Shown here piece by piece: positions 9,476-12,553 of a stretch of 48,151 nt of DNA; positions within the stretch are counted from its first letter, which is position 1; each line of letters starts with the position of its first letter. The notes beneath the pieces are model-generated. The model ran no database searches. It was not told the DNA's origin and worked only from the letters and a program-made list of their open reading frames with translations. The position numbers and the translations under genes are program-made. Origin of the DNA: a virus (taxonomy: Duplodnaviria; Heunggongvirae; Uroviricota; Caudoviricetes). Where the stretch lies: IMG/VR virus record IMGVR_UViG_2617270976_000012, positions 1-48,151 of that record. One strand, given 5' to 3'.

Positions 9476-9768
9476 GGGTGAGAGTTTATATTGCCGGTCC
9501 AATGACGGGATATGAAAATTTCAACCGTGAGGCGTTTCACAAGGCGGAAGAGGAACTGAAACGGGAAGGGCATACCGTCTTAAACCCGGCAGTACTTCCG
9601 GACGGGCTGACACAGCCGCACTACATGGATATTTGCATGGCAATGATTCGTTGTGTGGATGCGATTTACATGCTGAATGGCTGGCAGCGGTCAGCGGGCG
9701 CTAAGGCAGAGCTGGCACTGGCGGAGAAACTGGGGCATGCGGTGATTTATCAGGAGGTGGCTCAATGA
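9472..9768 (+). CDS. DUF4406 / nucleoside 2-deoxyribosyltransferase-like fold protein
   Basis: GTG start 9472 after GGAGG; N-terminal VYIAGPMTG motif. Confidence 0.5.
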   Translation: MRVRVYIAGPMTGYENFNREAFHKAEEELKREGHTVLNPAVLPDGLTQPHYMDICMAMIRCVDAIYMLNGWQRSAGAKAELALAEKLGHAVIYQEVAQ

Positions 9769-10226
9769 GAGAGGTTAACTATGAGGCGCTTCGTGAGGCA
9801 GCACAAAACTATCAGTCGACGCTGGCGTGGTATCAGGCTATCCCGGACAGCCCAAATGCTGAACGGGATTGTGATGCGGCTCTTGCTGCGTTTAAGCGTC
9901 ACATCCGTCATCGGGAAGCGGATATTATCGCTGATTTGCTGGATGGACTGGAAGAAGCAAAATCACAACTCAACGAGCAGCGTGAGTATTACGAAGGCGT
10001 TATCTCTGATGGGAGCAAGCGTATTGCTGCACTGGAAGCGCGGGAAGTTCAATTACCGACTCGCTACGACCTTCGATATGGACACCCGATAAATGCAGAT
10101 GAGCGACATGTCATGATACCTAAAGAAAATGGCAGTTGGCTTTACCTGATTGACCTAGAACACGCATTACGCGTCGCTGGCATTCGCATCAAAGGAGAGG
10201 AGCATGGAAATAAAACCAGAGGATGA
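9765..10226 (+). CDS. Hypothetical nin-region protein
   Basis: 153 aa; 3' end carries the CATTCGCATCAAAGGAGA junction module (C-terminus IRIKGE). Confidence 0.5.
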   Translation: MREVNYEALREAAQNYQSTLAWYQAIPDSPNAERDCDAALAAFKRHIRHREADIIADLLDGLEEAKSQLNEQREYYEGVISDGSKRIAALEAREVQLPTRYDLRYGHPINADERHVMIPKENGSWLYLIDLEHALRVAGIRIKGEEHGNKTRG

Positions 10227-10560
10227 GTTAAGCAATATCGTTTTATTTCCTGTAAAAGAGGATGACCCGCGTAATCAGGTTAATTTTCTTTATGAGCCAT
10301 CGGAAAGACCATACTGCCATCACGCCTCTGTCCGGGTTGATGAAAAAGAGCGTCAGGTCCGCTGTAAAATCTGCGGCGCAGTTGTGGAGCCATTTGACTG
10401 GATGCTCTCTGTGGCGAAAAGAGAAACCAGACTGGCAGATGATGTAAGGCTATTGCGTCAGGAGGAACGGGAAAGACGGAAAAATATAGAAAAGCTAATT
10501 CAGATTGAGCGTAACGCGAAAGCGCGGATACGCAGGGCGACAAAATCCAGAACTGAATAG
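10204..10560 (+). CDS. Hypothetical protein with putative zinc ribbon
   Basis: 118 aa; C-x-H...C-x2-C cluster (CHHASVRVDEKERQVRCKICG); basic C-terminus. Confidence 0.5.
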   Translation: MEIKPEDELSNIVLFPVKEDDPRNQVNFLYEPSERPYCHHASVRVDEKERQVRCKICGAVVEPFDWMLSVAKRETRLADDVRLLRQEERERRKNIEKLIQIERNAKARIRRATKSRTE

Positions 10561-10655
10561 TTAAATTTAGAACTGTTAAAAATTTAATCCTTAGCCGGAG
10601 GGATTTCTGCACCCTCAGAACATCAGGAGGCCGCCAGAAAGAGCGGTAATGAAAA

Positions 10656-11081
10656 ATGACTGAATTAACAAAAGAGCAATTAATCGAAGAAGCCAAATTA
10701 AAAATAGCGATTGCGAAATGCCATCCCAATTCAGGCGTGGCACGAGTAGAGGGTGAGTTATTCAAAATTGCACTGACATCGCTGGAAGCAGAACCGGTGG
10801 CATGGACTGACGACGAGGAACTGCGAGATATTGAAAAATATGGGTTCGGTGAGATATTTCAGCGTCCGTCAGATAAATATGAGGCTTCGCGTTGTGTTAC
10901 TCCATTGTATCGCATGCCGCCAGTGCCTGTAGTACCTGAAGGACTGGTTAAAGCTGTGCACTTCTATGAACAAGTAAAACGTGAGAATCCGCCAGTTGAG
11001 ACTGGAGCGTGGAAAGACGCTGTTGACTGGGTACTCAAAGAGGTTTGTCAGGTTGTAAACATTCGCATCAAAGGAGAATGA
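10656..11081 (+). CDS. Hypothetical nin-region protein (paralog of the gene at 11595-11939)
   Basis: N-terminus MTELTKEQLIEEAK...ALTSLEAEP parallels [14 protein letters not shown]...ALASLAAEP of the downstream gene; C-terminus IRIKGE. Confidence 0.5.
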   Translation: MTELTKEQLIEEAKLKIAIAKCHPNSGVARVEGELFKIALTSLEAEPVAWTDDEELRDIEKYGFGEIFQRPSDKYEASRCVTPLYRMPPVPVVPEGLVKAVHFYEQVKRENPPVETGAWKDAVDWVLKEVCQVVNIRIKGE

Positions 11082-11082
11082 G

Positions 11083-11598
11083 ATGGCGTTAACACACCGC
11101 GAACTCTGTCAGATTGCGTACAGGTTCCTTAAGCGCAACGGGTTCAAGGTTTGCTTTCATGACCGCTTTGTTGCTGTAACCAGTACTGGAGAACAACCAG
11201 ATGCTATGGGATTCAGAAATTCAGCATCATGCCTGATAGAGGCGAAGTGTTCTCGTGCTGACTTGTTGGCAGATAGAAAAAAGCGTTTCCGTAAAAATCC
11301 CTCTCTTGGCATGGGCGACTGGAGATTCTTTATTAGTGAGCCGGGAATTATTTCAATTGAGGATTTACCACCTGGCTGGGGATTACTTCACGTTGTTAAC
11401 GGAAGAGTACGGAAAGTACATGGGTGGCCCAAGGGTAATTGCTGTTGGGGTGATCCTGACGATAAGCCATTTACTGGAAATAAGCAGGTTGAATGCGATT
11501 ACATGTTGTCTGCATTAAGGCGCATGGAGTTGAGGGGACACCTTAATGAAATATATGACGGTGTAATCGTTAATAAGCAAGAAGGAAGCGCGGCATGA
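11083..11598 (+). CDS. Putative PD-(D/E)XK-type nuclease
   Basis: 171 aa with D...E-x-K-like arrangement (PDAMGF...CLIEAKCS); coupled to neighbours. Confidence 0.4.
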
Positions 11599-11939
11599 CC
11601 ACTTTTACCAGAGAGCAGTTAATAGCTCACGCAGAGGAGACTATTGAAGCACAGAGACTGTGCATACCGGGCACAATCGACCATGACATCATCCGCACAT
11701 ATAAGATGGATATTGCTGTTCTGGAAATCGCACTGGCATCGCTGGCAGCAGAGCCAGCCGGTAAATTGCATGAATACAAACCAGTGGGACATCAGCGTCT
11801 GGTCGACGAGTTAACCATGCTGGTAAAGCAGTTAACCTGGCAACTGAGGAAAACGAAGCCGGACTGTAAATTGCCGGGTAAGGCGATGGACTACCTGAAG
11901 CGAAACGGACTGATAAGCGCAGAGGATGTTTTACGATGA
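11595..11939 (+). CDS. Hypothetical nin-region protein (paralog of the gene at 10656-11081)
   Basis: 114 aa; N-terminal similarity to the upstream paralog. Confidence 0.5.
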
Positions 11940-12230
11940 CCTGGCCTGAGGCATTCACAACGGTAGGGATCGCAATGGCGGTGGCGCTGGTGGTGTATTC
12001 GATTTGTCGCTGGGGATAAAAACGATTTGCGGGGAAAGGATAGTTAAGTAGAATTGCTGCGGGTGCTTGAGGCTATCTGTCTCAGGCATGAATACCAAAA
12101 GGCAGATAGAGAAAAGCCCCAGTTAACATTACGCGTCCTGCAAGACGCTTAACATTAATCTGAGGCTCAATCTATGAACGGCAAATCTAGGTTAGCCTCT
12201 TACGTGCCGAAAGGCAAGGAGAAGCAGGCT

Positions 12231-12386
12231 ATGAAGCAGCAAAAGGCGATGTTAATCGCCCTGATCGTCATCTGTTTAACCGTCATAGTGACGGCACTGG
12301 TAACGAGGAAAGACCTCTGCGAGGTACGAATCCGAACCGGCCAGACGGAGGTCGCTGTCTTCACAGTTTACGAACCTGAGGAGTAA
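12231..12386 (+). CDS. hokD: Hok/Gef-family type I toxin (HokD/RelF-like)
   Basis: MKQQKAMLIALIVICLTVIVTALVTRKDLCEVRIRTGQTEVAVFTVYEPEE matches Hok/RelF as recalled; in-frame upstream extension resembles a mok-type leader; GC hairpin at 12393-12415. Confidence 0.75.
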   Translation: MKQQKAMLIALIVICLTVIVTALVTRKDLCEVRIRTGQTEVAVFTVYEPEE

Positions 12387-12553
12387 GAGACCCGGCGAGG
12401 GAGAAATCCCTCGCCACCTCTGATGTGTCAGGCATCCTCAACGCACCCGCACGTAACCCGCTTCGGCGGGTTTTGTTTTTTCCTGGCATTCTGGTTTACA
12501 ATTCGCACGCCAGCCTGAACAACTGGCACCTGCTGCGCCAGCAGAGACAACCG

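Follow-up and report, generated by a model that had tools for sequence, protein, structure and literature searches.

A short gene-junction block of Escherichia coli lambdoid phages as a probable boundary sequence for the exchange of single-gene cassettes

Susskind and Botstein reportedly proposed in 1978 that lambdoid phages possess linkers, and Clark and colleagues are said to have described in 2001, for phage HK620 (J Mol Biol 311:657; cited in PMC3029335), seven short conserved boundary sequences in the lambdoid metabolic domain, proposed as foci of homologous recombination that assort modules. In T4-type phages, the PeSL cassettes (Arbiol et al. 2010, PMC2839356) are intergenic elements of about 100 nt, each with a sigma-70 promoter and a terminator stem-loop. 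The Ea22 proteins, which have a pro-lysogenic phenotype and of which all those studied end in a +GE motif (K/R-G-E) whose significance was stated to be unknown (Dydecka et al. 2020, PMC7093339), have C-terminal domains that are mosaic and unrelated (PMC10834534). Here we describe an 18-mer, CATTCGCATCAAAGGAGA, that lies at two gene boundaries in a 48,151-nt stretch of DNA from a Caudoviricetes virus (IMG/VR record IMGVR_UViG_2617270976_000012, positions 1 to 48,151), which as a whole is called the window below. A block of about 31 nt, GCTGG-CATTCGCATCAAAGGAGA-GTGA(T/G)ATG, has the 18-mer as its invariant core, and our sequence comparisons suggest that this block is probably a boundary or linker sequence, within which homologous crossovers would reassort single-gene cassettes and from which the shared protein tail that it encodes would arise largely as a by-product.

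In the window the 18-mer occurs in two exact copies only, both on the + strand, at 10181-10198 and 11060-11077, and no further match was found there at up to three mismatches. An earlier note on this DNA had reported the same two copies and placed both at gene boundaries, as they indeed are. Chance would provide 0.01 copies (100 shuffles), and hundreds of copies exist outside the window, so a chance origin of the repeat can be rejected. The full block encodes A-G-I-R-I-K-G-E and a stop, the last eight codons of the upstream gene, and at the same time supplies AAGGAG, a consensus Shine-Dalgarno sequence, 6 nt before the ATG of the next gene, with a gap of 1 nt between stop and start. Copy 2 (11060-11085, + strand; the 18-mer followed by ATGAG and ATG, coding ..NIRIKGE) has its TGA at 11079-11081, then 1 nt, then the ATG at 11083, and has GTAAA in its left five positions as against the consensus GCTGG. 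Copy 1 (10176-10206, + strand; GCTGG, the 18-mer, GGAGC and ATG, coding ..AGIRIKGE) has GGAG in place of the normal GTGA (GGAGA-GGAGC-ATG) and therefore lacks a stop after IRIKGE, so that the upstream open reading frame (ORF), at 9765-10226, runs eight codons further (EHGNKTRG*) and overlaps the gene starting at ATG 10204 by 23 nt. The idea that the 18-mer forms both the last codons (IRIKGE) of one gene and the ribosome-binding site of the next thus stands in full for copy 2, and AAGGAG does lie 6 nt 5' of the next ATG (10204 and 11083) at both copies, but at copy 1 the gene does not end at IRIKGE. The copy 1 form, the 18-mer plus GGAGC, precedes the gene for the 118-aa protein encoded from ATG 10204 in almost all of 80 independently fetched loci.

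Conservation of the block has sharp edges. A position-by-position measurement, in which each flank class was represented by a single sequence, gives an information content of 2 bits over the 18-mer and 1.4-1.7 bits at positions -5 to -1 (GCTGG) and +1 to +8 (GTGA[T/G]ATG), with background reached beyond -6 and +9, that is, within about 6-9 nt on each side. The geometry of stop, Shine-Dalgarno sequence and start is likewise fixed, 17 of the 19 downstream classes having their ATG at +5. Ribosome binding does not require the left 10 nt of the 18-mer, CATTCGCATC, and yet these are invariant. Rfam covariance models gave no match at either copy at E <= 1, the only matches being sok and a weak isrK further downstream, and no excess of RNA structure was detected: the folds of the two junction regions are less stable than those of shuffled sequence (z = +1.0 and +1.6), a weak folding that fits an accessible translation start. 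Nor was a promoter-like or terminator-like site found at either copy. Together these results rule out a structured RNA, a promoter or a terminator at the block.

At least 120 viral contigs of IMG/VR contain the exact 18-mer, and the block is present in 106 phage records, mostly of Escherichia, Stx and Shigella phages. The 31-mer was counted in 5426 complete E. coli genomes, with at least 28 exact bases required and the T variant only covered: 1136 of them have it, none more than five times, and 111 of the 1565 places in total are on plasmids. Phage lambda itself is among the carriers: its ea22 gene ends ..GACGCTGG-CATTCGCATCAAAGGAGA-GTGA, coding MSDAGIRIKGE*, and AGIRIKGE makes up residues 175-182 of lambda Ea22, a protein whose C-terminal domain is represented by an NMR ensemble (PMC10834534). 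The home of the block is the accessory-gene arrays of E. coli lambdoid phages and prophages, where it lies in the exo-xis region or after the replication genes, and in P1/P7-type plasmid prophages. A placement in the early (metabolic) region is accordingly seen in lambda (exo-xis), in the window (past the replication genes) and, for a second version of the block discussed below, in the ea region of P22. The block is not a free-standing element but the 3' end of ea22-type genes, that of lambda included, joined to a Shine-Dalgarno sequence, a stop and a start.

Two further observations concern lambda. At its locus (660-869, - strand) the block is followed by GTGAGATCGG, without an ATG, and then by about 190 nt of non-coding sequence before ea8.5; contigs related to lambda have GTGATATGAGCAGGAATACGGG.. 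at this position, a seven-codon ORF, and the stretch in lambda looks like the scar of a lost downstream cassette. In addition, about 30 species-representative assemblies (Streptomyces, Prevotella, Shewanella, Pseudomonas, Bacillus and others) include contigs that are identical to lambda in the surroundings of ea22. Three such contigs have lengths of 48.4-48.5 kb, two of the three with about 1x coverage, and lambda contigs in unrelated assemblies are almost certainly laboratory lambda contamination.

The genes on the two sides of the block are not co-inherited. The 118 occurrences with full context fell into 14 upstream and 19 downstream classes that cannot be aligned with one another, as defined by single-linkage BLAST clustering of 200 nt per side, and these classes are joined in 47 combinations. 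There are 36 four-gamete configurations, in each of which a pair of upstream classes and a pair of downstream classes show every one of their four possible pairings. Moreover, the gene for the 171-aa protein that follows copy 2 lies behind at least eight different upstream sequences in loci that were fetched through that protein, independently of the motif. The break-points of mosaicism coincide with the block in alignments as well. Public alignments of phage P7 and many Stx phages to the window start exactly at 11060, and those of E. coli genomes start at 10175 or at 11064/11070. Of the 5426 complete E. coli genomes, 3071 contain pieces of the region 9700-11700, with as many as 11 places in a single genome, and only 16 contain the whole arrangement of that region. 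The earlier note had read the 18-mer as a conserved linker for the modular exchange of genes, and had suggested looking for it elsewhere and asking whether its flanks vary. With the motif as widespread as it is, and with its flanks in so many pairings, the comparative patterns support this suggestion, and recombination at the block is what they would imply.

The same behavior is displayed by a second, distinct sequence. The eaD gene of P22 ends ..CGC GCT GGC ATC AAG GTT AAG GGG GAA TGA, coding RAGIKVKGE* (P22 locus 4907-4950, - strand), and this second version, GC[CT]GCT-GGCATCAAGGTTAAGGGGGAGTGA (AAGIKVKGE*), is found in 94 viral contigs, with Salmonella and Hafnia phages as its home. It is nearly invariant in DNA while lying between many different flanks, and its conservation stops exactly at the stop codon. 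Scans for intermediates returned no I-R-V form and three contigs with an I-K-I form (IKIKGE), all of them one-base variants of the Salmonella version. The block therefore exists in discrete versions with different host ranges, mainly Escherichia and Shigella phages for one and Salmonella and Hafnia phages for the other. A third tail, ..AACCACTTGCGCACTAAAGGAGAGTGATATG (NHLRTKGE*), has only AAAGGAGAGTGATATG in common with the main block; of 80 loci with the 171-aa gene, about 38 have this tail in front of it.

How might such a block work? It ends the upstream gene with A-G-I-R-I-K-G-E and a stop and brings the Shine-Dalgarno sequence for the next, and the downstream gene would be set up for coupled translation because AAGGAG and the start codon lie right at the upstream stop. 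Because the same block is present at many boundaries of phages and prophages that may meet in one cell, it would offer a patch of identity of about 25 nt, and crossovers within this patch, promoted by Red, RecET or RecA, could join any upstream gene to any downstream gene. The resulting recombinants should be expressible, since a crossover inside the block leaves the frame and the termination and re-initiation signals intact. Single-gene cassettes would be reassorted in this way, and the IRIKGE tail would move with the joint onto unrelated proteins. Two direct copies 879 bp apart, as in the window, would also allow a cassette to be deleted or duplicated.

A related but rather unlikely possibility is that the block has itself been selected as a plug-and-play adaptor, with its versions serving as compatibility codes that channel exchange within phage pools and limit it between them. 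If so, a standard junction would ensure in-frame termination and coupled translation for any incoming gene. The codes would be the discrete versions with their different host ranges: IRIKGE mainly in Escherichia and Shigella phages, IKVKGE in Salmonella and Hafnia phages, and an LRTKGE variant.

Several considerations weigh against an exchange of cassettes at the block. The mechanism is drawn from comparative patterns, and no recombination event has been observed. The flank classes are products of single-linkage clustering, the samples drawn through downstream genes are small and consist mostly of close relatives, and scans for exact matches pick invariant copies by construction. Homology speaks on both sides. 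Between junctions that differ on both sides, the uninterrupted identity has a median of 25 nt (range 18-43 nt), with at least 23 nt in 78% of such pairs. These lengths come close to the minimum of about 30 bp that is quoted for recombination by Red and RecA (PMC2327257; PMC3945230) and plausibly support homologous recombination, but a shared stretch of at least 30 nt is found in only 14% of junction pairs, so that exchange at the block would be inefficient. Finally, 8 of the 18 nt differ between the E. coli version and the Salmonella version, and yet the encoded peptides are similar (IRIKGE and IKVKGE), the changes between them being four synonymous and two conservative, and the 9-15 nt to the left of the 18-mer often encode (A/E)-I-R-A-A with synonymous variation. 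To judge from the sequences, these differences look like the mark of constraint at the protein level, at least in the past, and some constraint may thus have acted on the tail peptide or on the ribosome-binding site.

These last points are the natural ground for a second alternative, according to which the tail is a functional C-terminal peptide, AGI[RK][IV]KGE, that selection on the protein maintains and that serves, for instance, in interaction, oligomerization or as a stability tag, with the identity in DNA being secondary. The rare IKIKGE variant is conservative too, and a +GE end on all studied Ea22 proteins (PMC7093339) is what one would expect of such a peptide. Nevertheless, we consider this explanation unlikely, because several results point to identity at the level of DNA. 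Within each phage pool the codons of the tail are the same across genes that cannot be aligned. When 185,579 species genomes were scanned for G-I-R-I-K-G-E-stop in any choice of codons, phage contexts gave GIRIKGE* only with the canonical ones; nine other matches came from unrelated taxa, mostly archaeal or environmental metagenome-assembled genomes, where about 10 were expected by chance. An ancient protein motif drifting synonymously in the E. coli pool is ruled out by this result. Of the one-base variants seen in samples drawn through downstream genes, most alter the amino acid or shift the frame (R>G, I>T, R>H, E>G, +1 nt), as against one synonymous change.

The proteins that carry the tail speak in the same direction. 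Six classes of upstream protein belong to Ead_Ea22, and the tail is also borne by an XF1762/Mom-like protein (NF045478, E = 5e-61), by an HNH endonuclease and by proteins that match no family, all with identical tail codons; the proposal in the earlier note that a linker explains why unrelated proteins share a C-terminal hexapeptide is borne out to this extent. XF1762 homologues in a Pectobacterium phage and in mycobacteriophages stop at ..LWEVRR, and the E. coli version runs 11 residues (MSTTGIRIKGE) past this native end of the family. In the common form of the junction before the 118-aa gene, that of copy 1, the tail is internal and is followed by eight residues, so that a K/R-G-E protein end is present at copy 2 (..IRIKGE*) and not at copy 1. 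In addition, translation of the Shine-Dalgarno sequence in this frame (AAA-GGA-GAx) by itself yields K-G-E, and further genes of these loci likewise have KGE or RGE at their ends wherever a Shine-Dalgarno-like stretch falls in frame. Such in-frame reading would explain the +GE end of Ea22 proteins and offers a simple answer to the question of why all of them end in K/R-G-E. The shared peptide is plausibly for the most part a by-product of the junction, and may have no role of its own.

One carrier deserves separate mention. In E. coli CFSAN061763, an ORF annotated as HNH endonuclease (1440-2027) starts VSNIDKQA.., an Ea22-type N-terminus, and ends ..HGAAGIRIKGE*; it keeps both termini of the ea22 slot around a different interior, a hint that ea22 has a second conserved edge at its 5' end.

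A third alternative is that the block has no role in recombination: joints would arise anywhere by illegitimate recombination and be selected at gene boundaries, as in the Hendrix model, and the block would be an inherited gene end combined with a good ribosome-binding site. This is the general account of most mosaic joints, about 70% of which lack detectable flanking homology (PMC3945230; PMC3029335), and the right half of the block, with its Shine-Dalgarno sequence, stop and start, does have an obvious selected function. We nonetheless regard the proposal as improbable here, because random joints would not recreate one and the same sequence of 24-31 nt where 14 upstream classes meet 19 downstream ones, because the whole pattern is repeated with another sequence in Salmonella phages, and because the invariant CATTCGCATC would find no explanation in ribosome binding.

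It is very improbable that the block is a specific site, whether for an integron-like site-specific recombinase, for a homing endonuclease or for a structured RNA signal: the arrangement is cassette-like and HNH endonuclease genes sometimes adjoin the block, but it lacks inverted-repeat symmetry, a stable fold or an Rfam match, no recombinase is consistently linked to it, one HNH gene bears the tail as its own 3' end instead of flanking the block, and conservation ends exactly at stop or start codons. The HNH ORF examined, with its Ea22-type start and its tail, fits replacement of a cassette and not site-specific cleavage, and a homing-endonuclease target was rejected on this basis.

The four genes that adjoin the two copies in the window, all on the + strand, illustrate the variety of the flanks. 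Upstream of copy 1 (flank class U2) lies the gene for a 153-aa Ead/Ea22-like protein (9765-10226; Pfam PF13935 Ead_Ea22, E = 3.5e-11), in which IRIKGE is internal because of the eight-codon read-through. Downstream (class D1) is that for the 118-aa zinc-ribbon-like protein (10204-10560), which has two Cys-x-x-Cys pairs, a weak match to Pfam Zn_Ribbon_TF below the cut-off and 453 relatives in viral contigs. Copy 2 is preceded (class U9) by the gene for a 141-aa protein (10656-11081) that ends NIRIKGE* and for which a family search gave no match, Ead_Ea22 PF13935 included, and is followed (class D2) by that for the 171-aa protein (11083-11598), also with no family match. A longer homology between the two upstream proteins was considered and rejected: only 29 C-terminal residues are similar, and the score comes largely from the shared tail. 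These Ea22-type cassettes sit downstream of replication genes and not in an exo-xis region; the neighbors on the replication side, upstream of the cassettes, are a DnaC-like gene at 7529-8275 and genes with DUF1627, DUF977 and DUF4406.

There are signs of other recurring sequences in the same array. ORFs 10656-11081 and 11595-11939 have a common N-terminal motif, MT.(F/L)T(K/R)EQLI ... IAL(T/A)SL(E/A)AEP, with 34% identity over 56 aa between the products of 10656-10805 and 11595-11760, and a 31-nt DNA repeat of 87% identity links 10765-10795 to 11725-11755. N-termini of the MT.(F/L)T(K/R)EQLI type open several downstream gene classes, three of which end ..DGWISCSERMP.., and this N-terminus may be another recurrent module edge. 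Further downstream, the window has a hok/sok-type toxin-antitoxin locus (12061-12386), in which the sok RNA (12061-12236; RF01794, 112 bits) overlaps a hok-like 70-aa ORF (12174-12386), and a weak isrK-like match follows at 12395-12476, below the gathering score.

If the block is indeed a linker for single-gene cassettes, it has implications beyond this window. Recent mosaics were reported to lack a trace of flanking homology in about 70% of cases when 50-bp windows were used (PMC3945230), and the block would be a very common example of a linker that is too short for windows of that size. More than one in five complete E. coli genomes have it, as does lambda itself. Because it is common and sharp-edged, because its flanks are combined in dozens of ways and because Salmonella phages have a counterpart of independent sequence, the linker hypothesis can be tested directly. 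For annotation, the results also counsel caution, since a shared C-terminal peptide or the name 'Ea22-like' can be a by-product of recombination and not a sign of shared function.

Compared with known systems, the block is closest to the lambdoid boundary sequences. As judged from its sequence and its flanks, it is a boundary sequence by the comparative features of that group, Clark's sequences having been compared by description only: both are short, conserved and located at the edges of exchangeable early-region units with unrelated flanks. The block differs in that its unit is a single small accessory gene and not a functional module, in that it lies inside coding sequence and so gives rise to a shared C-terminal peptide, and in that it comes in at least two host-range versions. 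PeSL cassettes resemble it in being repeated between small non-essential genes, in providing the gene that follows with its Shine-Dalgarno sequence and start, and in having been proposed to mediate the shuffling, insertion and deletion of ORFs by homologous recombination. In contrast to PeSL, however, the block is about 31 nt long, overlaps the end of the upstream ORF and has neither a sigma-70 promoter nor a terminator stem-loop at either copy; and PeSL mini-circles have been demonstrated experimentally, whereas the block is known from sequence comparison. Integron cassettes likewise form arrays of single promoterless genes with a recurring site, but an attC site is an imperfect inverted repeat at which an integrase carries out recombination, and the block has no such symmetry or stable structure and no integrase linked to it in the loci examined. 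The papers on the +GE motif of Ea22 (PMC7093339; PMC10834534) deal with the same gene family and made the same observation on its tail. To this the present analysis adds a nucleotide-level explanation, the extension of the motif to AGIRIKGE, carriers other than Ea22 and the reassortment of downstream genes. The concept of a boundary sequence is itself already established. What appears to be new, with Clark's sequences again compared by description, is this particular junction, together with its scale, its sharp edges, its place within coding sequence, its unrelated carriers, its host-range versions and the explanation that it provides for the +GE ends of Ea22 proteins.

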